Assembly (NCBI GenBank): GCA_902168185.1
Contig: CABHOV010000037.1
Location: 12,930-76,929 of the forward strand
Origin: an uncultured Bacteroides sp.
Lineage (GTDB): Bacteria > Bacteroidota > Bacteroidia > Cytophagales > Cyclobacteriaceae
DNA: 64,000 bases
Reading direction: 5' to 3'
Shown here: positions 19,325 to 37,055 of the stretch, in pieces
Position numbering within the stretch: the first letter of the stretch is position 1
Layout of the letters: each line of letters starts with the position of its first letter
Translations under genes and position numbers: made by a program
The notes under the pieces: model-generated
Seen by the model: only the letters and a program-made list of their open reading frames with translations
The model's database searches: none
Told to the model about the DNA's origin: nothing

Positions 19325-19653
19325 AAAAAATGCGCTTTTCTTCGTTTAAATGATACATGAACAGGCTTGGGGCGGATGTATTAAATTGTATTTATTCTGA
19401 TTTTTTCGTTTCGATAAGGCAAAAGCTATACATGGTGAAAACCATTTCCACTTCAATGCATACATGAAATTTTATAGCGGTCATACTTACCATATACTTA
19501 TGCAGGAGTAAGCCTGCCTGGTAACAAAAGTATATTCTTCGCAAAGGAATTGATGTCTGTTTTAATGCTTACCAAACGATCTTTATTTACTGAAAATGAC
19601 CTCAGTATTTTTACTGACATAACGCTAGATCGTGTGTATCAATCGATCGTTGC

Positions 19654-27049: not shown

Positions 27050-29986
27050 TCAGGCACTCAATTTCGCGGGAGTAAATTTAGCAACCTTCAGACGGAGTTC
27101 TTCAGGGTCGAATGGTTTACTGATGAAGTCGTTCATGCCCATCTCCATTACTTTATCGCGCATGCCACTCATGGCCGCAGCCGTAAGCGCAATGATAGGT
27201 ATATCTTTGAAGTAAGGATCTTCCATTGAGCGGATCTTGCGTGAAGCCTCATAGCCATCCATACCTGGCATCTGAAGATCCATGAATACCATATTATAGG
27301 ATTTACTGCCAATCATTGTTAACGCCTCGAGTCCGTCATTGGCTATATCTACTGCTACGCCCCATTGCTCCATAAAGTTAGAAGCCACCAACTGGTTGAT
27401 ACGATTATCTTCTACGAGAAGAACACTAATTGTTTTATCATTTACAAGCTTACCGGAGACAGCACGTTTTTCTAAAACACGTACACCCTTACTTTTCTCC
27501 ATGAGCAATACAAACGAGAATGTAGAACCATATCCGGGAACACTTTCTAATTCAATCTTGCTACCCATTAAATGAAGTAATCCCTTCGTGATGGTTAGGC
27601 CAAGCCCTGTGCCACCAAACCTGCGGGTGATATCATTATCAGCTTGAGAAAAGTGGTCAAATATAGTATCAAGCTTGTCGGCATCTATACCGATACCGGT
27701 ATCTTTCACCGCGAAAAGCACTTTACATTTACCGTTCTCTTCACCCAGTGATGTAACCGAAAATTCAACATAGCCTCGCTCGGTAAATTTGATAGCGTTG
27801 CTCAACAGGTTTGTAACAATCTGAGAAATACGTACCGTGTCGCCCTTTACAAATTCAGGCAAACGCTCATCGTACCTCATATATAGGGCGATGTTCTTTT
27901 CTTTCGCGCGCTGCTCCAACATTTGCTTCGTGTCTGATAACAGCGAGTTCAAATTAATATCAATGGATTCGAGTACGATCTTACCGGCTTCGATCTTGCT
28001 GAAATCAAGAATGTCGTTGATAATGGTTAACAGGTTATGGCCTGAGAACTTCAATAAGTGAAGACGCTCGCGTTGATCTTCACGCGGGTCATTCTGCAAC
28101 ATCAGATTGGTAAGACCTATAATAGCGTTCATCGGTGTCCGTATCTCGTGACTCATCATCGAGAGGAACAAACTCTTGGCACGCGTAGCTTCTTCTGCTT
28201 TTTCTTTTGCAATTTGAAGAGATGCTTCAAACTCTTTCCGCTTGGATATATCCCGGGCAGAAGTCTGGAAGCCGATCATATCACCTTTATCATCATAAAA
28301 AGGATGAGCATTCGATTCGAACCAAATATAGGAGCCATCTTTTCTACGCATCCTGTATTCAATAGTAGCGGATTTCCCTTCGAAGACTACAGACTGCATG
28401 ATCTCCCGCACATACGCTTCATCGTCTGCATGTACATTATCGTACGGAGAGTTGCCTACAAGTTCATCAGGAGTATATCCCAATATTTCTTCCACCGAAG
28501 GTGATATGAATGTGCGGGTAGTCTCCGCATCGGTTTTGTATAGCGTAATAAGATCTTTCGAGTTGCTGGACAGAAGCCTATAGAGTTCTTCACTATCTCT
28601 TAACTTCTGATGAACTTCTTTTATTTCGGTGATGTCATGTGTAGTACCTATATAGCCAATAACGTTTCCATTGGCATCCATCATCTGTGTGCCTTCGCTG
28701 ATGATCCAGCGAACACCACGGACCGCATTCATAAAACGGAACGCAAGCTTAAGTTCACGTTTACTTTCAACTGCTTTATACCATTCTCTTAATACACGAT
28801 GGCGATCTTCTATATAGATTGCATGCAACCATCCTTCATGGAGTGCCTGTTCCTCGGTTAAGCCAGTAATTTCACACCAGCGCTTGTTCACATAGGTACA
28901 TGCACCCGTGGCATCAGTTTGAAAAATACCAACCGGTGCATTTCCGGCAAGCAAGCGAAATCGCTGCTCGCTTTCGGTGCGCTCGATCTCTATATTCTTT
29001 AATGCAGTTATATCGCGGGATATAACACTTACTTTCAATACTTGACCGTCACTTGAAAATTGCATATTCACGCTCTGGCCAAGCCAACGCTCTTCGCCAT
29101 TCTTGTTAAGCATGACGAGCTGAAAGTATGTATTACTTTCCTTTGACTTTCGTTGCGCTTTGTAGAACTCGACTACTTCCCGTTGATAATCCGGGTGTAC
29201 AAGTTCCCAATACTGTTTGGAAAGTAACTCCTCACGGGTATATCCACAGGCACGCTCCATTACCGGGTTCACAAAACAGAAGTAACCATTAAGGTCCAGT
29301 TCGTAGATCAGGTCGGTAGCGTTCTCCACCATTTCTCTATACTGGCGTTCGCGAACTTCCAGTTGCTCTTGCAGCGTCTGAATCTGCTCGATATTACTGC
29401 GGATCTCTTCTTCCGAAGCTTGTAATTCATTGTTGAGTACACTGAGTTGGAGATTGGAATCATGCAAGGTCTTCGCCTTGTCATTCATCTGGCTTGCTAT
29501 ATACTTTAGCTCGATCTGTTTAACAACGTTGTTTGCCAGTGTACGCAAACTTGAATATTGAATTTCGGTTAGCGCTTTTGGTGAAGTATCCATTACACAC
29601 AGCGTACCGATCTTATACCCATCGGATGTAATCAGCGGCATGCCTGCATAAAACTGAATTCCCAGTTCACCTGTAACCAAAGGACTGCTTGCAAAGCGAT
29701 TGTCTTTTCGTGCATCTGGCACGATCATCATATCATCTTGTTGAATGGCATATGCGCAAAACGCATGCTCACGGGGAGTCTCCTGTATATCTAGTCCTAC
29801 CTTTGCCTTAAACCATTGCCTGCGTGCATCTACTAAACTGATCACGGATATCGAGGCATCACAAATAGCAGCAGCAAGCTTCACAATGTCGTTCAGGTCC
29901 TCTTCATCTTTTGTATCAAGAACCTGAAGTTTACGAAGTGTTTCAAGCCGGTCTTCTTCTGAAGCGTTCGGGAGGGGACAGTTCAT
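27050..29986 (-). CDS. Hybrid sensor histidine kinase: GAF, coiled coil, ~4 PAS, HisKA, HATPase, REC
   Basis: N-terminal GAF; H-box FLSMMSHEIRTPMNAIIG; HATPase (NLLSNAIKFT, DTGIGI, GTGLGLTI). C-terminal receiver (VLLVEDNRINQ...MVFMDLQMPGMDG...IIALTAAA...FISKPF). 978 aa. Confidence 0.9.
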   Translation of the reverse strand: MNCPLPNASEEDRLETLRKLQVLDTKDEEDLNDIVKLAAAICDASISVISLVDARRQWFKAKVGLDIQETPREHAFCAYAIQQDDMMIVPDARKDNRFASSPLVTGELGIQFYAGMPLITSDGYKIGTLCVMDTSPKALTEIQYSSLRTLANNVVKQIELKYIASQMNDKAKTLHDSNLQLSVLNNELQASEEEIRSNIEQIQTLQEQLEVRERQYREMVENATDLIYELDLNGYFCFVNPVMERACGYTREELLSKQYWELVHPDYQREVVEFYKAQRKSKESNTYFQLVMLNKNGEERWLGQSVNMQFSSDGQVLKVSVISRDITALKNIEIERTESEQRFRLLAGNAPVGIFQTDATGACTYVNKRWCEITGLTEEQALHEGWLHAIYIEDRHRVLREWYKAVESKRELKLAFRFMNAVRGVRWIISEGTQMMDANGNVIGYIGTTHDITEIKEVHQKLRDSEELYRLLSSNSKDLITLYKTDAETTRTFISPSVEEILGYTPDELVGNSPYDNVHADDEAYVREIMQSVVFEGKSATIEYRMRRKDGSYIWFESNAHPFYDDKGDMIGFQTSARDISKRKEFEASLQIAKEKAEEATRAKSLFLSMMSHEIRTPMNAIIGLTNLMLQNDPREDQRERLHLLKFSGHNLLTIINDILDFSKIEAGKIVLESIDINLNSLLSDTKQMLEQRAKEKNIALYMRYDERLPEFVKGDTVRISQIVTNLLSNAIKFTERGYVEFSVTSLGEENGKCKVLFAVKDTGIGIDADKLDTIFDHFSQADNDITRRFGGTGLGLTITKGLLHLMGSKIELESVPGYGSTFSFVLLMEKSKGVRVLEKRAVSGKLVNDKTISVLLVEDNRINQLVASNFMEQWGVAVDIANDGLEALTMIGSKSYNMVFMDLQMPGMDGYEASRKIRSMEDPYFKDIPIIALTAAAMSGMRDKVMEMGMNDFISKPFDPEELRLKVAKFTPAKLSA

Positions 29987-30015: not shown

Positions 30016-30501
30016 TTAGGATGATAGAATTTTCTGCATGGCCCTTGCTTCGTCCATCAATACCTCATGTGAAGCGATGAGCTTAACAATCCGGTCTTTA
30101 TACTCGGAGCCATGTATAGTATTAGAAGTTTCTTCCAAATGAATAATTTCGGCATATAGTACATCGGTACACAACAGCGATGTGGAAGACTTCAATTTAT
30201 GAAGTATACGTGCAGCGTCTTCAGCATTGTTTGAAGACACTATATACTTGAGTTCTTCCAATAACACCGGTGTAAATTCGAGGAAAGCACCGAGTAGTTC
30301 TTCTTGTATTTTATCATAGCCCCCGGTGAGCTTATTAAATTTATCAACATCAAAAAAGCGCTCAGCAGGTTTATTTTTAGCCGCTACATCACGCTCCTGA
30401 ACAGATACTTCCACAAAGGTCTGGTTCTTCAAAAGAATTTGATTCATTGATCTGTTCGTATTCATACTTTTAAAATTTAAGATTTCAGCCTGAGAATTCA
30501 T
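30016..30501 (-). CDS. Histidine phosphotransfer (Hpt) domain protein
   Basis: AEDAARILHKLKSSTSLLCTDVLYAEI is an Hpt-type HxLK[GS]S motif in a four-helix-length protein. The ORF-track start at 30507 is a TTG; the first ATG is at 30499-30501. Confidence 0.7.
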   Translation of the reverse strand: MNSQAEILNFKSMNTNRSMNQILLKNQTFVEVSVQERDVAAKNKPAERFFDVDKFNKLTGGYDKIQEELLGAFLEFTPVLLEELKYIVSSNNAEDAARILHKLKSSTSLLCTDVLYAEIIHLEETSNTIHGSEYKDRIVKLIASHEVLMDEARAMQKILSS

Positions 30502-30530
30502 GTACAAAAATGCATTGAAAAGCCGCTTTA

Positions 30531-30566
30531 AAAATCAGCATATGGCTGATTTTTAGTAAAATCAGG
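30531..30566. promoter_or_regulatory. Palindromic operator-like site: AAAATCAGC-atatg-GCTGATTTT-tagt-AAAATCAGG
   Basis: Three alternating half-sites of the motif TGATTTT/AAAATCA, centred about 55 nt upstream of the Hpt start. The same inverted repeat recurs at 31449-31467 and 32063-32078. Confidence 0.5.
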
Positions 30567-30632
30567 AAGTGTAGAATGATCTAAGTTTTTCACTTAAACA
30601 ATCCGTAAAATGCGCACAGGAAAGGATGATTT

Positions 30633-31385
30633 TTATGCCTTTAAGTTTGGAATCCACACGAAGAAGCTGGACCCGCAACCTTCCTCGGAATTAACCGTTA
30701 TACTGCCACTCATTTTGCGCAACACTTCATTTACAATATAGAGGCCGATACCCGCACCTTGCGACTGCTGTGAACCCCTATAAAAAAGCTGGAATATATT
30801 CTTCTGAATATCGGCAGATATACCGATACCGTTGTCCAGTACTTTAATGTGACAGCCATTACTGTTTACGCGCACGAATATATCTACATAACGATCCTCC
30901 TTAGAGGAATCATTAAAAACAAGTGCATTTAATATCAGCTGCGAAAATACCATTACAAGTCGCTCCTGATCGGTATAGAATGGAACGGTCTGCACTACAT
31001 TTTTGGACAGTCTGATGTTCTTATCTTCTGCTTCCTTTTTATGCTCTACCAATATAGTGTCCAGAACTTCATTCATGGAAACTGATTCGATCACCAGTTC
31101 CTTCCTGGAGTTCGCGAGAAACTGTTCAAGCTCACTCAGAATGGTTTCCATTTTGTTTACCGTCTTTTGAATCAATTCAAGGTGTTGTGGCAACTGAATA
31201 GTATCAGCCGGTTGATTTTTCAATAACGTCACCAATCCTGTTATGGATTTAAGTGGACCACGCATCGAGTGGGAGCAATTATATAGGAACTTGTCGATAA
31301 CGTTCTTCGCTTTTGCAAGTTCTTTACCAATAGATTGTTCTTCCCGCTCTTTTTCTTCCATTACAATAACTTTACTGGATAGCAT
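30633..31385 (-). CDS. Small cytoplasmic histidine kinase (DHp + HATPase only)
   Basis: Variant H-box FLYNCSHSMRGPLKSITGLVTLLK and HATPase boxes (LILNALVFN, DNGIGIS, GAGIGLYIV). 250 aa with no sensor domain. Confidence 0.85.
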   Translation of the reverse strand: MLSSKVIVMEEKEREEQSIGKELAKAKNVIDKFLYNCSHSMRGPLKSITGLVTLLKNQPADTIQLPQHLELIQKTVNKMETILSELEQFLANSRKELVIESVSMNEVLDTILVEHKKEAEDKNIRLSKNVVQTVPFYTDQERLVMVFSQLILNALVFNDSSKEDRYVDIFVRVNSNGCHIKVLDNGIGISADIQKNIFQLFYRGSQQSQGAGIGLYIVNEVLRKMSGSITVNSEEGCGSSFFVWIPNLKA

Positions 31386-31448
31386 ACTAACTGTGAATTG
31401 ATGATAACAAAATTGGTAAATAGAGATCTATATCGAATGCGCCACCCA

Positions 31449-31467
31449 CTGATTTTGAAAAAATCAG
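31449..31467. promoter_or_regulatory. Palindromic operator-like site CTGATTTT-gaa-AAAATCAG
   Basis: Perfect 8-3-8 inverted repeat about 73 nt upstream of the mini-kinase start. Two extra AAATCA half-sites follow at 31475-31480 and 31486-31491. Confidence 0.5.
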
Positions 31468-31516
31468 GGCGCAGAAATCATCAGGAAATCACCTGAGTAA
31501 AACACTTAACTTAAAA

Positions 31517-32002
31517 TTATTTACTCATTTCCAGGTGCGTGGAAATGATTCGGCTGAGAATGCCTAATGATTGAATTTGTTCGCCTGAAAATTTACGAGG
31601 CTTGTTGTCTGCCAATCCGATAGTACCCAACACAATGCCATCTGCTGTAACGATTGGCATACCGGCAAGGAAACGAATAACAGGTTGATCGAACACACGG
31701 GAATCGAATTTAAATATAGCTTCCTTCAGCGTGTCTTCTATTTCAGTATAGTGATGATCGCGTATGATAGACTCCCACAGCTGAACACGCTCCTCGGTAA
31801 CAGCATTTCCTGCAGAAGCAAAAGCTTGCAACGTATTATCAACAAAAAAACAGATGGACACTGAAGTGGTTCTGCTGATAATAATGGCGAGTTGTGCGAG
31901 TTCTTTCCAAAAACGTTCATTGGCCACGTTGTCAACAAAATCCGGCAACAAGCTTTTCAGCTTTTCTTCTGGAATTTGATCAGCATCTGCCTTTGTCGTC
32001 AT
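31517..32002 (-). CDS. Stand-alone GAF domain protein
   Basis: 161 aa, similar to the N-terminal GAF of the hybrid kinase 27050-29986 (..FLAGMPIVTADGIVLGTIGLADNKPRKFSGEQIQSL..). Confidence 0.75.
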   Translation of the reverse strand: MTTKADADQIPEEKLKSLLPDFVDNVANERFWKELAQLAIIISRTTSVSICFFVDNTLQAFASAGNAVTEERVQLWESIIRDHHYTEIEDTLKEAIFKFDSRVFDQPVIRFLAGMPIVTADGIVLGTIGLADNKPRKFSGEQIQSLGILSRIISTHLEMSK

Positions 32003-32062
32003 GTCCTTTCGTTAACGACACAAAGATGTCGCTACTCCCCCTATATTTAGACAGGGAGAAAA

Positions 32063-32078
32063 TGATTTTACAAAATCA
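32063..32078. promoter_or_regulatory. Palindromic operator-like site TGATTTT-ac-AAAATCA (7-2-7)
   Basis: Perfect 7-bp arms with a 2-nt spacer, about 68 nt upstream of the GAF gene start and 32 nt downstream of the LuxR-type regulator stop. Confidence 0.5.
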
Positions 32079-32109: not shown

Positions 32110-32781
32110 TTAGGACCGCGGTACTTTCCTTTCCAACGCATATCGTACAAGCTGTGCAGTACCCGAAAGACCGAGCTTATCCTGTATATGTAGCTTATGC
32201 GTCTCTACCGTTTTTACACTGATGAATAACTCTTCTCCAATTTGCTTTAGGCTTTTACCCTCTGCTATGAGCATGAGTACTTCTTCCTCACGTTTTGAAA
32301 GAATGCTACTCTTCAGTTGATCGCCTTTATTTGAATCACGTTGTGCGGATTTCACTGGCGATGAAAAATCATCGAGCACCAGGGAAGTAACATCAGCACT
32401 AAAATACTTCTCTCCTTTTACAACACTTCGTATAGCTTTGACGAGAACCTCCGATGTACTGTTCTTATTCAGGTACCCATCCATTCCGCTGCGAAGCCCG
32501 GCCCGTATAAAATCTTTATTCACTTCGCTGGACACCAGTATAACTTTCGTTTGAGGATTCTGCTCTTTGATCCAGCGCGTAGCTTCTATACCCGTCATAC
32601 CTTTCATGACTATATCCATGATCACAACATCCGGAGCAAGCTCGGTTGCGCTATTCACGGCTTCCTCTCCGCTTTCAAGACTTCTCAGAATTTCAACTTC
32701 GCCTGTTTCGCGCAGCAACGAAACTATACCCTGGCGTACCAATCCATGATCATCAACGACTATAACTTTTACTGTATCCAT
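32110..32781 (-). CDS. NarL/LuxR (FixJ) family response regulator (REC + LuxR-type HTH)
   Basis: VIVVDDHGLVRQG, DVVIMDIVM, VILVSS and the C-terminal LSKREEEVLMLIAEGKSLKQIGEELFISVKTVETHKLHIQDKLG. Confidence 0.9.
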   Translation of the reverse strand: MDTVKVIVVDDHGLVRQGIVSLLRETGEVEILRSLESGEEAVNSATELAPDVVIMDIVMKGMTGIEATRWIKEQNPQTKVILVSSEVNKDFIRAGLRSGMDGYLNKNSTSEVLVKAIRSVVKGEKYFSADVTSLVLDDFSSPVKSAQRDSNKGDQLKSSILSKREEEVLMLIAEGKSLKQIGEELFISVKTVETHKLHIQDKLGLSGTAQLVRYALERKVPRS

Positions 32782-32790
32782 ACGGTCATT

Positions 32791-33159
32791 TTATTTATCC
32801 AGTATACTTTTTATTACTTCGTGCAAATCATCCAGCGAGCAAGGCTTTTTTATAAATGCCCTTACATTCAAGCTTAATGCTCTTGCCTCATTTTGATGCG
32901 GTGGCTTCGCCGAAAAAATAGCGATCGGTATATTTCGCATCATTTTGTCTTGCGCGATCTTTTCGATCAAAGCAAATCCATCGAGCTTCGGCATCAGCAG
33001 ATCAGTAATGATCAGGTCAGGTATACTATAAACAAGTCTTTTATACGCTTCATGTCCGTTGGCACAAGGCTCAACATCATACCCCTCCATCGTTAAGAAG
33101 TCCGTTACATGCTGAAGTAAATCAGGTGTATCTTCAACTACCATTATCTTTTTAGGCAT
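32791..33159 (-). CDS. Single-domain response regulator
   Basis: IMVVEDTPDL, DLIITDLLMPKLDG, IAIFSA and FIKKP. The start overlaps the upstream kinase stop by 8 nt (ATGCCTAA). Confidence 0.9.
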   Translation of the reverse strand: MPKKIMVVEDTPDLLQHVTDFLTMEGYDVEPCANGHEAYKRLVYSIPDLIITDLLMPKLDGFALIEKIAQDKMMRNIPIAIFSAKPPHQNEARALSLNVRAFIKKPCSLDDLHEVIKSILDK

Positions 33160-36100
33160 GCGCTAACGGAATTACAATAGTGATCTCTGTACCTTTTCCA
33201 AGGGTACTCTTAATATCAATATAGCCTCTCAGCAAATCAAGGGCCTTGCGTATAATCGACAAGCCCAACCCGGTGCCTTCTACATCATTCGCATTGCTCG
33301 CCCTATAAAAAGGTTCAAAGAGATTCTTTATATCCTCTTCCGGTATACCAATGCCATTGTCCTTCACACGAATGGTTAACTTATTGGGCGCAGCGGTAAC
33401 GAACAAATCAACGTACCCACTACCGGGCGAAAACTTGATTGCATTCGTCAATACATTTATCACCATGGTTCTGATCAGTTTCTCATCCGTACTGATTGTA
33501 CCTGTAACTCCGTTGACATGAAGTTTTACAGTGTGTGTATTGCCAGTACTCTGCTCGATCTCATTTTTTAATTTTTCGAATGTCTCAAAAACATCAACCT
33601 GCGATACATGCACCACCAGTTTACCAGCTTCAGTTTTGCCGATCAGCAACACATCGTCCAGTAAGTGCGTCATGTGTCCAACTTGCTTTTCTATATTGTC
33701 CAATCGCTTGTCTACCTCTTCAGGCGTTATCTTCTGTTTATACTTCTTTATAAAACCGGATGCCAGCGAAATTGATGACAATGGTGTTCTGAATTCATGC
33801 GAGGCTATAGATACAAACCTGCTCTTCATCTCCACCAATTCTTTTTCCTTTTGCAACGCCTCGTTCAATTCGCGTGTACGATCATATACCATGCGCTCCA
33901 GGTTCTGCTTATATTCGATCAACTCCGTTATATTCTGACCAACGATGGTTGCGCCTACAATTTTATTTTCGGCATCTCTGCGAGGAGAAATGCTGAGCAG
34001 CAAGGACAGCTTTTGTTTTTTCTTGGAGAGCAATGGTAATTCAAAGTTGCTTACGGGAACACCATTCAGTGCATCCTTCATAATTGCCGTAACCACTTCG
34101 TGATACTCTGGTTCCAGCAGGTTGCTTACCCAATTTCTGCCGATCATTTCGGTTCTCGAAAAACCGGTGAGCTCAAATGAAACTCTGTTCCATTCGTTGA
34201 TCTTGCCATGCTGATCGATACCAAATATAGGTACATTTGCATTTTCGATTAAGCTTGACAACTCCCGGGCTATTGCCGTTAACGTACCTTCAAATTCTTT
34301 TTGCTCGGTTATATCATGTGCCTCGATGCAGTACCCTATAAACTTACCTTCCTCTGATTTCACAGGGCTAATTGTAGTCTTGAACCAGGCAGCTTCCAAC
34401 CCTCCGTTCTGAAGGTTGGCATCGTACGAAATCATCTCGCCATTCTCGACACGTTCCAGTAAATTGACAAACGCATTTTTTCGGTCATCACTTATATAGT
34501 CCAGTAAGTTTACACCTGTTTTAAGTTCCTGGTTGGTACGCAGCAATACATTCCTATAGTTGGATTTATTGAAGGCTATAATTTTATAATCCGGTGATAC
34601 CAGGGTAAAGGAGTCACGTGTGTTATCGAAAATAGCCTTCAGGTTTGCTTCCGATTCGCGAACTATATATTCCTGTTCTTTCTGCTGCGTGATATCAAAT
34701 GCAATAATAGCCACATGGGTAGTTTTTCCATCAGCCAACACAGGTTCGTAGCGTAGCGAATGATATACCGTTCCCGACTTTACATGAAAAGCCGCTGTGG
34801 TTTTAATGAACTTACCTTCGAGAGCTTCCTGGAACAATTGCTGCGAAGTTTCCTGGCGCTCCTTTACGGTAATATCCCATATATGCTTCCCGATAGCAGG
34901 CTTTACACCCGATGCATCCTCCATGAAATTTTCAAAGGCTTTGTTAAAGAGCAGTACCCTTCCATCGACATCGAGCAAAGCGATCATCTCCTGGGTGTTT
35001 GAAAATATAATATCCAGTTGCTGTTGATACCGTAGTATTATCTCTTCTGCTTTTTTCTGGTTGGTAATATCAACGATCAGACCCTCCTGCCGGAGAGGCC
35101 GCTCCTGCTCATCGTATACAATCCTGATCTTTTCAAAGAGCCAATGATAATTTTCACCACTTGTCTTAATGCGATAAGTACATTCCGCATAGCCCTCCCG
35201 TAGTACAGCTTGCAACGCTTCCTCTTTCAAAGTCCAATCATCTTCAGGTATATGCTCGCGCCAGTAATACGCATCGTTCATCATTTCGCTTTTTACCTGT
35301 TTACCTAACAACCGCCTAGCAGAGCGACTGAGGTAGTTCTTCCCTGTACGCGAAAGGTCTATAGACCAAATTATATCATTGGAGGAATCGAGTACCCGAT
35401 TCAGTTGCTCATCTTTTTGCCGGAGGATTGTTTGTGTCTGCTCGGAAATCTTTCGGTGAGCATCTTCTAATTTATTGTTCGTAGATTTTAGTTGCTCATT
35501 GATGGTAAGAATCTCCTCATTGCGAACGGCAAGCGCCTGATACGCATCACGTTTCTTTCGCCAGGATATAATGGCAATAACACTTGTCCACAACATCACC
35601 GCAAGGCTCGCCAGCAAAATATAGATATATAGCTGTTGCTGATCAAAACGCTGCCCTTGTGAATTTACATTCTGCTGAAGGCGCACGATATCATTTCGCT
35701 GCTCCTCCATTTTCATTTGTTGCAATTGCATTACTTTCACATTCCGGCTGTCAATGGGAGTTGTTTGCAGTATATTATCTTTTATATAGGGCTGGCCGTG
35801 TAAAATATTACTGGCTGTACGAATGGCTTCTTCGCCTCCTGTGGGATATAAAAATGTTGCTGTCAGTATTTTATCTTCCACCAGCTGCAGGCCACCACCG
35901 GGACCGGAAAGTCCATCAACGCCAATGAATTTGATGCTATCGGCACGCCCTTGTTTCTGACACAAGGTATATACGGAGTAGGCCATCACATCATTGTGTG
36001 CATATACTATATTAAAAGAAGGAAGAATACTTGCACTTTCACGGAATCTGTGTGCTGCAGTATCCTGCTCCCATTGCCCGTCTAACGAAGCAACTATTTT

Positions 36101-36649
36101 CAAATTCGGATATGGTGCAATGGCATCGCTAAAACCACGGTGTCTTTCAAGGGCAGGCGAAGATTCGCGCAAGCCCCATACTTCGAGTATAGTTCCATTC
36201 CCTTCGGATATCTCCGCAGCGAGCGCTCCGGCCAGCTTGCCGATCTCATAATTATCAGCTCCTATATATGCAGTATATTGCTCAGAATTGATTTTGCGAT
36301 CTACCATTACTACAGGTATACCTTTTTTATAGGCAAGCTCCACGGATGGTGTGATGGCATCAGCTTCATTAGGCGTAACGATAAGCAAATCGACTTTATC
36401 ATCAATAAAGCCCTCGATGTCCCTTCGTTGTTTTTCAGTATCGTTTTGAGCATCACGATACTCTAATTCGATGTCGGGGTGAAACAACAGCTCTGCATGC
36501 ATCGCAGCCAGCATCTGCTTCCGCCATAGATCGCTACCTGTACATTGCGCAAATCCAATCCTGAATTTTTTACTGCTGTTCTTCGGAGCGCAGCAAATCA
36601 AAAATCCAAAACATATTACTAATAGATAAATCCAATGGTGTATCCGCAT
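33152..36649 (-). CDS. Sensor histidine kinase with a periplasmic sugar-binding-protein (PBP type 1) domain, TM, ~4 PAS, HisKA, HATPase
   Basis: Signal/lipobox-like N-terminus (LVICFGFLICC). PBP1 pattern (FRIGFAQCTGSDLWRKQ...VDLLIVTPNEADA...IPVVMVDRK...GADNYEIGK). One TM at about residue 345. H-box FVSIASHEFRTPLSSI and HATPase (NVLTNAIKFS, DNGIGIP, GTGLGLSI). Confidence 0.85.
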   Translation of the reverse strand: MRIHHWIYLLVICFGFLICCAPKNSSKKFRIGFAQCTGSDLWRKQMLAAMHAELLFHPDIELEYRDAQNDTEKQRRDIEGFIDDKVDLLIVTPNEADAITPSVELAYKKGIPVVMVDRKINSEQYTAYIGADNYEIGKLAGALAAEISEGNGTILEVWGLRESSPALERHRGFSDAIAPYPNLKIVASLDGQWEQDTAAHRFRESASILPSFNIVYAHNDVMAYSVYTLCQKQGRADSIKFIGVDGLSGPGGGLQLVEDKILTATFLYPTGGEEAIRTASNILHGQPYIKDNILQTTPIDSRNVKVMQLQQMKMEEQRNDIVRLQQNVNSQGQRFDQQQLYIYILLASLAVMLWTSVIAIISWRKKRDAYQALAVRNEEILTINEQLKSTNNKLEDAHRKISEQTQTILRQKDEQLNRVLDSSNDIIWSIDLSRTGKNYLSRSARRLLGKQVKSEMMNDAYYWREHIPEDDWTLKEEALQAVLREGYAECTYRIKTSGENYHWLFEKIRIVYDEQERPLRQEGLIVDITNQKKAEEIILRYQQQLDIIFSNTQEMIALLDVDGRVLLFNKAFENFMEDASGVKPAIGKHIWDITVKERQETSQQLFQEALEGKFIKTTAAFHVKSGTVYHSLRYEPVLADGKTTHVAIIAFDITQQKEQEYIVRESEANLKAIFDNTRDSFTLVSPDYKIIAFNKSNYRNVLLRTNQELKTGVNLLDYISDDRKNAFVNLLERVENGEMISYDANLQNGGLEAAWFKTTISPVKSEEGKFIGYCIEAHDITEQKEFEGTLTAIARELSSLIENANVPIFGIDQHGKINEWNRVSFELTGFSRTEMIGRNWVSNLLEPEYHEVVTAIMKDALNGVPVSNFELPLLSKKKQKLSLLLSISPRRDAENKIVGATIVGQNITELIEYKQNLERMVYDRTRELNEALQKEKELVEMKSRFVSIASHEFRTPLSSISLASGFIKKYKQKITPEEVDKRLDNIEKQVGHMTHLLDDVLLIGKTEAGKLVVHVSQVDVFETFEKLKNEIEQSTGNTHTVKLHVNGVTGTISTDEKLIRTMVINVLTNAIKFSPGSGYVDLFVTAAPNKLTIRVKDNGIGIPEEDIKNLFEPFYRASNANDVEGTGLGLSIIRKALDLLRGYIDIKSTLGKGTEITIVIPLAHA

Positions 36650-37055
36650 CTTATATAAATTCAGATCAACATCAACGTATTTTTATAACTGATCAAAACA
36701 TTAATAGAATTATATAATCAGGAATGAATAGTGGATAGCTACTATTCATTTTCGTTCGATCAAATTACTCTAGAAAGTAGTGATTTATCAGATATAAAAA
36801 AAATATATCAGCAGGCACTTTATGAAAAGGTATAAAAAACTGTAGCCAAGTAGTTAGATGTATAAAAGCATACCAGACGCATTCAAATAAGTGTCATGCT
36901 ATCACTTTTTGAATTCATGATCAATGTTTAACCTTTCATTTATGACACTTCAAAAGATGCATATGTATGTGCAACAAAAATGTATAACGCGCGGGCTTAA
37001 GTCAATATATATACCGATACGCAGCTTGAATTGCTATTTTTGACTTAATGTGGTT

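Follow-up and report, generated by a model that had tools for sequence, protein, structure and literature searches.

Each of the three intergenic gaps of one signalling operon carries almost the same palindrome, and the question raised by this locus is what these repeats do there. The operon lies on the minus strand of a 64,000-nucleotide stretch of DNA (the window) from the genome of a soil bacterium of the genus Ohtaekwangia (Cytophagales; 7,765,104 bases, 42% G+C). An earlier note, made from the letters of the window, had proposed that the repeats are operators of the LuxR/NarL-type regulator encoded beside them and that they mark internal promoters of the operon. The computational analysis described here supports this proposal by phylogenetic footprints, by a fixed distance between repeat and predicted promoter and by the association of the motif with the regulator subfamily. 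The palindromes are probably part of a composite operator through which the phosphorylated regulator, or one of its paralogs, would activate internal promoters of the genes encoding a GAF protein, a sensor-less histidine kinase (mini-kinase) and an Hpt protein followed by a hybrid kinase.

The three near-identical palindromes, one per gap, have been confirmed in the sequence at the positions given in the earlier note, and exact TGATTTT-N2/3/4-AAAATCA palindromes start at window positions 32063, 31450 and 30547. The sites and their accessory half-sites are the following:

32063-32078, site 1: forward letters TGATTTT-ac-AAAATCA, minus-strand reading CCTGATTTT-gt-AAAATCA, arrangement 7-2-7
31449-31467, site 2: forward letters CTGATTTT-gaa-AAAATCAG, minus-strand reading CCTGATTTT-ttc-AAAATCAG, arrangement 7-3-7
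30531-30566, site 3: forward letters AAAATCAGC-atatg-GCTGATTTT-tagt-AAAATCAGG, minus-strand reading CCTGATTTT-acta-AAAATCAGC-catat-GCTGATTTT
32049..32054, minus strand: degenerate third half-site of site 1, CTGTCT, 8 nt past the proximal half-site, at the -33 position
31475..31491, minus strand: two extra TGATTT-type half-sites distal to site 2, the first kept in 5/7 loci and the second not kept

Site 3 is composed of three half-sites of alternating orientation, with a palindrome spacing of 7-4-7 and the third half-site at the -33 position. A half-site at this position is missing from site 2 and degenerate in site 1, the copy of site 3 being strong; with it, the element is larger than the earlier note had described. 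The two extra half-sites distal to site 2 may be auxiliary sites. The palindrome centres had been placed 55-75 nt upstream of the next start codons, which holds for the GAF gene (68.5 nt) and the mini-kinase gene (73 nt); for the Hpt gene the distance is about 90 nt with the corrected start codon, and not 55 nt.

Sigma-A promoters of Bacteroidota have two boxes, -7 and -33, the latter being a TTTG situated some 19-21 nt further upstream. Every one of the three gaps holds a conserved nAnnTTTG sequence (CATCTTTG, CAATTTTG and CATTTTTG) located 14-35 nt upstream of the start codon, and its first base lies in all three cases exactly 34 nt past the gene-proximal AAAATCA. In Bacteroidota the sigma-A -7 box TAnnTTTG occupies positions -12 to -5 (PMC9723704), and on this basis the proximal half-site would end at about -47, the palindrome would be centred at about -55, and transcription is predicted to start near 32016, 31403 and 30500. 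The predicted boxes are listed below; the CATTTTTG box is counted in six loci because the seventh locus (L007) ends at a contig end.

32021..32028, minus strand: predicted -7 box CATCTTTG of the GAF gene, conserved in 7/7 loci; predicted start about 32016, ATG at 32002
31408..31415, minus strand: predicted -7 box CAATTTTG of the mini-kinase gene, conserved in 7/7 loci; predicted start about 31403, ATG at 31385
30505..30512, minus strand: predicted -7 box CATTTTTG of the Hpt and hybrid-kinase genes, conserved in 6/7 loci; predicted start about 30500

A -33 TTTG was not found in the three promoters or in the homologous sites, which have CTGAT(TT) or unconserved sequence at that position, and this absence fits an activator-dependent promoter. 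Promoters of the sigma-70 type were also considered and discarded, since a scan for them gave no more matches than shuffled sequences and the phylum uses another type of promoter. A second small palindrome, TTTGAT-NN-ATCAAA, was observed over the -7 box and the predicted start of many homologous promoters (L030, L034, L077, L081, L084 and others), with the consensus 'TTTG....atcAAa'; the second gap of the window (31396-31411) has TTTTGTTATCATCAA there. It may serve as a repressor site or belong to the leader of the transcript.

The genome-wide motif scan that the earlier note had recommended has been carried out. TGATTTT occurs 2087 times and AAAATCA 2019 times in the whole genome, so that about 1.6 palindromes with spacers of 2-4 nt are expected; four exact ones were found, three of them clustered in the window on 1.5 kb beside the regulator gene. 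Allowing one mismatch adds 45 sites, 13 of them intergenic and most in coding DNA, and allowing two mismatches gives 508. Because exact and one-mismatch sites are so few, the motif is considered local and a large regulon was ruled out. That the repeats are chance matches, or functionless relics of a local intergenic duplication, could be thought of for arms so rich in A and T in a genome of 42% G+C, and the fourth exact copy (C72:95058), at the 3' end of an open reading frame near phage-tail-like genes, may itself be due to chance. Nevertheless, this explanation is hardly credible for the window, where the clustering far exceeds the genome-wide expectation, where the three gaps share no alignable sequence outside the motif and the box, and where the sites are conserved at about 70% nucleotide identity and in other genera. 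The fourth copy (C72:95058-95075) ends a 141-aa reading frame whose adjoining products start like phage tail tube and sheath proteins, and it has a TTTG 39 nt downstream; it may be either a chance match or a further target.

Phylogenetic footprinting, also suggested in the earlier note, has been performed on the six other genomes of the genus in which the operon is syntenic (seven loci including the window, L001-L007), and the sites were conserved at the orthologous loci. In these alignments the palindromes are the best-conserved blocks of the three gaps, the pairwise identity of motif and box columns against that of the other intergenic columns being 0.86 versus 0.57, 0.89 versus 0.49 and 0.64 versus 0.45, in a comparison that spans lineages at about 70% nucleotide identity. 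Site 1 is an exact 7-2-7 palindrome in all seven loci, and the CTGTC of its third half-site is also present in all of them. Site 2 is exact or one base off in L001-L005 and degenerate in L006 and L007, and site 3 keeps its proximal and third half-sites in all loci, with a degenerate distal half-site in L003-L005. Within the genus, genomes carrying the operon have 3-7 exact palindromes and the others 0-3. As a separate observation, the window genome has GT as the spacer of site 1 (window 32070-32071), and the 95%-identical genome G012 has the reverse complement AC (L002 2630-2631); the difference goes back either to two substitutions side by side or to an inversion of the spacer within the repeat.

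The same alignments bear on the idea that the repeats act in RNA. In read-through transcripts, distal and proximal half-sites, or proximal and third ones, would then form mutually exclusive hairpins with a role between the cistrons in attenuation, weak termination or processing. Arms that are kept while the loop varies in length are indeed hairpin-like, and half-sites of alternating orientation could pair into hairpins that exclude one another; moreover, the proximal and third half-sites of site 3 fold at -11.6 kcal/mol (z = -3.7) in a structure that ends in a T-run, and the same energy was obtained for site 2 together with its flanks. However, the arms are conserved as sequence with no compensatory change seen in the alignments, a G-to-T change of site 2 in L004 and L005 being uncompensated, and site 1, the best conserved of all, folds at only -2.3 kcal/mol, with 20 of 200 shuffled sequences as good, in line with the previous remark that the palindromes make poor terminator hairpins. 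The terminator scan made no call at sites 1 to 3, the second hairpin of site 3 being the sole structure close to the G+C-rich stem with T-run of an intrinsic terminator, no Rfam match was obtained at E up to 1, and in most sites of other genera no T-run follows the third half-site. The fixed distance of 38-39 nt to the conserved TTTG, in addition, has no role in a model of this kind, which is very unlikely.

The candidate binder is a standard NarL/FixJ-family protein. Its Response_reg match covers residues 6-118 and its GerE match residues 160-215 (Pfam), and residues D10, D11, D56 (the phospho-acceptor) and K106 are invariant in 11 members of the subfamily. The closest solved structures are those of VraR (5hev, 7e-38) and NarL (1a04, 1.6e-24), with full-length alignment to both types. 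None of the NCBIfam equivalog models reaches its cut-off for this protein, and the subfamily is therefore regarded as uncharacterised. There are two paralogs in the genome, with 52% identity, both encoded in kinase-REC-regulator operons, and the DNA-contacting helix KTVETHK is invariant among the paralogs of the genus. Co-location and co-conservation with the palindromes make this regulator, or one of its close paralogs, the most likely binder.

A survey of the subfamily was carried out with a profile of the regulator and its paralogs, which retrieved 80 loci, 76 of them from Bacteroidota and mostly from Cytophagales (Chryseolinea, Chryseosolibacter, Dawidia, Parachryseolinea, Fulvivirga and many metagenome-assembled genomes). 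Sites with up to 2 mismatches, no more than 320 nt past the stop codon of the regulator gene, were found in 31 of the 76 Bacteroidota loci, compared to 0.71 on average and at most 4 in shuffled windows, and their density in that zone was 1 per 772 bp versus 1 per 8082 bp elsewhere in the same loci. In 24 of 29 sites next to homologous regulator genes in other genera, the TTTG has an offset from the proximal half-site of 38 nt (18 sites) or 39 nt (6 sites), whatever the length of the spacer, so that it is the proximal half-site whose position is tied to the promoter. About 19 of the 29 have a third half-site, CTGA(TTT), that begins 8 nt past the proximal one, which corresponds to -38 to -32. 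The consensus of 41 sites is tcCtgatTTTTT.aAAATCAG..tt.ccCTGAt, followed by 17 unconserved positions and CA..TTTG, and the commonest spacer across genera is 3 bp. A mini-kinase homolog is the commonest gene to follow the site, and the order regulator, site, mini-kinase recurs in many Cytophagales loci.

The same arrangement was found in a paralogous operon of the window genome. Contig C29 has, in this order, a kinase gene, a REC gene, the gene of a 52% identical regulator, the site CCCTGATTTT-tt-AAAATCC with a TTTG offset of 39, and a mini-kinase gene whose product is 43% identical. The other paralogous operon, in contig C46, has a 9-2-9 variant upstream of the kinase gene that lacks the promoter geometry. 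Among the 25 NarL-type regulators of the genome, only the regulator of the window and its C29 paralog have a site with up to 1 mismatch within 2.5 kb. Elsewhere in the genome, a site with full geometry and one mismatch (C20:8450) is located upstream of an Hpt-like gene followed by hybrid kinases, and its O. kribbensis ortholog is exact; a site in contig C73 precedes the gene of a secreted 187-aa protein, and its orthologs have exact palindromes. Four candidate sites outside the window, these two among them, combine a proximal half-site, a third half-site and a TTTG, with an offset of 37 nt in the C73 site and of 38-39 nt in the other three. They are C20:8392-8450, upstream of the Hpt-like gene with hybrid kinases, C20:529-589, upstream of the gene of a secreted protein, C73:~339870, upstream of the gene of the 187-aa protein, and C46:102454, upstream of the gene of an 820-aa protein with a Peptidase_S74 domain.

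Several results weigh against the palindromes being operators of this regulator. About 45 of the 76 homologous loci had no site at the stringency of the survey, and no palindrome was found upstream of the first kinase gene of the operon. Spacings of 2, 3 or 4 bp between half-sites are awkward for a rigid dimer, the heptamer TGATTTT is not that of NarL, and the -7 box mostly begins with C (consensus CAnnTTTG) where TAnnTTTG has a T. The recognition helix is common to three paralogous regulators, any of which may be the binder. The retrieval pattern included that helix, which makes its conservation in the set a product of construction and a comparison of helices between loci with and without sites uninformative. 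Finally, genome G030, from another family of the order, contains at least 5 copies of a related, promoter-like element of about 60 nt, in which a perfect repeat of 8-1-8 arrangement, ATCAGGGA-T-TCCCTGAT, keeps the same spacing to the TTTG (L107 3264 and 6817, L108 3292, L109 3745 and L110 3335); the genes downstream are unrelated (a lectin-like protein, HsdM and others), and no related regulator gene was found near these repeats.

The G030 repeats also speak for the alternative that the sites are operators of a different DNA-binding protein encoded elsewhere, for example a global regulator, the nearness to the regulator gene being a conserved feature of the operon and no pointer to the binder; the C46:102454 and C73:~339870 sites, which adjoin non-signalling genes, point in the same direction. 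This alternative is considered unlikely, as the motif tracks the regulator subfamily through many genera and into paralogous operons and is missing within 2.5 kb of the 22 more distant NarL-type regulators of the genome, while the conserved cluster encodes no other DNA-binding protein and the very small number of sites in the genome is a poor fit to a global regulator. An order-wide scan for AAAATCA-N8-CTGA-N26-27-TTTG, intended as a co-occurrence test, was discarded as too noisy (47 matches versus 8 in the reversed control); at least 7 of its matches share one near-identical sequence resembling a conserved coding region, and the others are unrelated.

For the regulator-dependent operator favoured here, the following mechanism is proposed. 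The palindrome would be the upstream part of a composite operator at three internal sigma-A-type promoters of the phosphorelay operon, which in the direction of transcription would consist of CCTGATTTT-N2-4-AAAATCAG, often CTGAT(TT) 8 nt further on, and CAnnTTTG 34 nt past the proximal half-site, with the palindrome centred at about -55 and the third half-site, at -38 to -32, standing in for the usual -33 TTTG. The kinase of the operon would phosphorylate the regulator (32110-32781), or close paralogs sharing its recognition helix, which would then bind to the half-sites. Bound regulator would recruit RNA polymerase to promoters that lack the -33 element, and the outcome would be a raised expression of the genes for the GAF protein, the sensor-less kinase, the Hpt protein and the hybrid kinase. 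We infer activation rather than repression. A doubtful, although conceivable, extension is that of a graded set of promoters, in which one regulator would fire the three promoters at different phosphorylation thresholds; a first two-component system would then license, one after another, the GAF protein, the sensor-less kinase and the Hpt and hybrid kinase of a second phosphorelay. It is suggested by the proximal half-site being locked to the promoter, while the distal one shifts by 2-4 bp and the third varies in strength. We know of no description from Bacteroidota of such a transcriptionally staged signalling cascade, one that would be conserved across Cytophagales.

The best-known operators of this family are those of NarL and NarP in Escherichia coli, which are 7-2-7 inverted repeats of the heptamer TACYYMT, with several half-sites in varied arrangements upstream of the regulated promoters. 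The system of the window resembles them in its REC and GerE regulator, its inverted heptamers, the 7-2-7 arrangement of site 1 and the presence of several half-sites. It differs in the sequence of the heptamer, in the spacings of 3 and 4 bp, in the -33/-7 promoter of Bacteroidota and in being a predicted operator. The NarL paradigm invoked in the earlier note thus fits the inverted heptamers and the spacing of site 1, but neither the NarL heptamer sequence nor the spacings of 3 and 4 bp of sites 2 and 3; as judged from these features, the element would work as a NarL operator does and is not a NarL box. Regulators of the VraR/LiaR type are NarL-family proteins that control their own operon. 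Among proteins of solved structure, those of Firmicutes (5hev, 4gvp) match the regulator best in sequence, with a full-length E of 7e-38, but the identity is only about 35-40%, the recognition sequences are unrelated and the operon of the window is a phosphorelay with GAF, mini-kinase and Hpt genes.

Among sigma-A promoters of Bacteroidota, the predicted ones are usual in having nAnnTTTG at the expected -7 position, and unlike them in the mostly C first base of the box and in the CTGAT half-site that takes the place of the -33 TTTG. A parallel in layout is StyR of Pseudomonas fluorescens, which is reported to be a phosphorylated NarL-family activator with a high-affinity site near -40 that overlaps the -35 region and with more sites upstream (PMC2442086). 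The third half-site at -38 to -32 together with the palindrome at about -55 resembles the StyR arrangement, although StyR belongs to a different phylum, acts at a sigma-70 promoter through a different motif and was studied experimentally, the present arrangement being predicted only. Literature searches on the sequence motif and on the promoter consensus yielded no transcription-factor motif for Cytophagales, and nothing relevant on the sequence motif itself. We know of very few transcription-factor motifs for Bacteroidota outside gut Bacteroides and Flavobacterium.

The analysis provides a predicted operator for a widespread, uncharacterised NarL-type subfamily, CCTGATTTT-N2-4-AAAATCAG-N7-CTGAT with CAnnTTTG 19 nt later, and three predicted internal promoters, their predicted starts placed within a few bases, in what would otherwise be taken for a single transcription unit. 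The regulon indicated by the sites is small and composed almost entirely of signalling proteins, and it would be a simple system in which to study the action of an activator on the unusual -33/-7 promoters of the phylum. The genes of the operon are the following:

33152-36649, minus strand: histidine kinase with periplasmic-binding-protein and PAS domains, first gene of the operon (Pfam)
32791-33159, minus strand: REC-only protein (Pfam)
32110-32781, minus strand: NarL/FixJ-type response regulator with REC and GerE domains, candidate binder (Pfam Response_reg 1.2e-26, GerE 3.2e-18)
31517-32002, minus strand: stand-alone GAF protein, first predicted target (Pfam GAF 4.2e-05; synteny in 7 genomes)
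30633-31385, minus strand: sensor-less 250-aa histidine kinase (mini-kinase), second predicted target (Pfam HisKA and HATPase_c only)
30016-30465, minus strand: Hpt protein of 149 aa, third predicted target (weak Pfam Hpt match, 4.8e-4; start taken from relatives)
27050-29986, minus strand: GAF-PAS hybrid kinase, after a 29-nt gap from the Hpt gene

The domains that the earlier note had assigned to the regulator, GAF, mini-kinase and Hpt products agree with Pfam, the Hpt match being weak. As listed, the Hpt reading frame starts at the TTG at 30507, inside the predicted -7 box. The start was moved to the ATG at 30465 by comparison with L003 and L006, because the TTG and the ATG that lie upstream of it overlap the box; the relatives have an upstream stop and start at the equivalent codon. 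The corrected gene has a 35-nt leader.

Two outlying half-sites to which the earlier note had drawn attention are present in the sequence but find no support in the analysis. For the lone CTGATTTT at 19397, neither a partner nor a suitably spaced TTTG exists, and such a half-site occurs at chance frequency, CTGATTTT/AAAATCAG having 956 copies in the genome, about 1 per 8 kb. The half-site ATAATCAGG at 36714, near the first gene of the operon, recurs in the 95%-identical genome alone and is absent from the relatives at about 70%. Autoregulation through the first promoter of the operon was accordingly rejected, there being no palindrome and a 10-bp inverted repeat that, like ATAATCAGG, is kept only in the 95%-identical genome. 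A different block, CTGATAAATCACTACTTTCTAGAGTAATTTGATCGAA (window 36755-36791, minus-strand reading), is located upstream of the first kinase gene and is conserved in L013-L016 with divergent flanks; it is probably the main promoter of the operon or another operator, and not a TGATTTT palindrome. The first kinase itself lacks the periplasmic-binding-protein domain of about 330 aa (window 35650-36649) in L014, L015 and L016 (genomes G003, G010 and G006), and because this domain is absent in three orthologous operons, the sensor input differs between species while the rest of the operon is kept.

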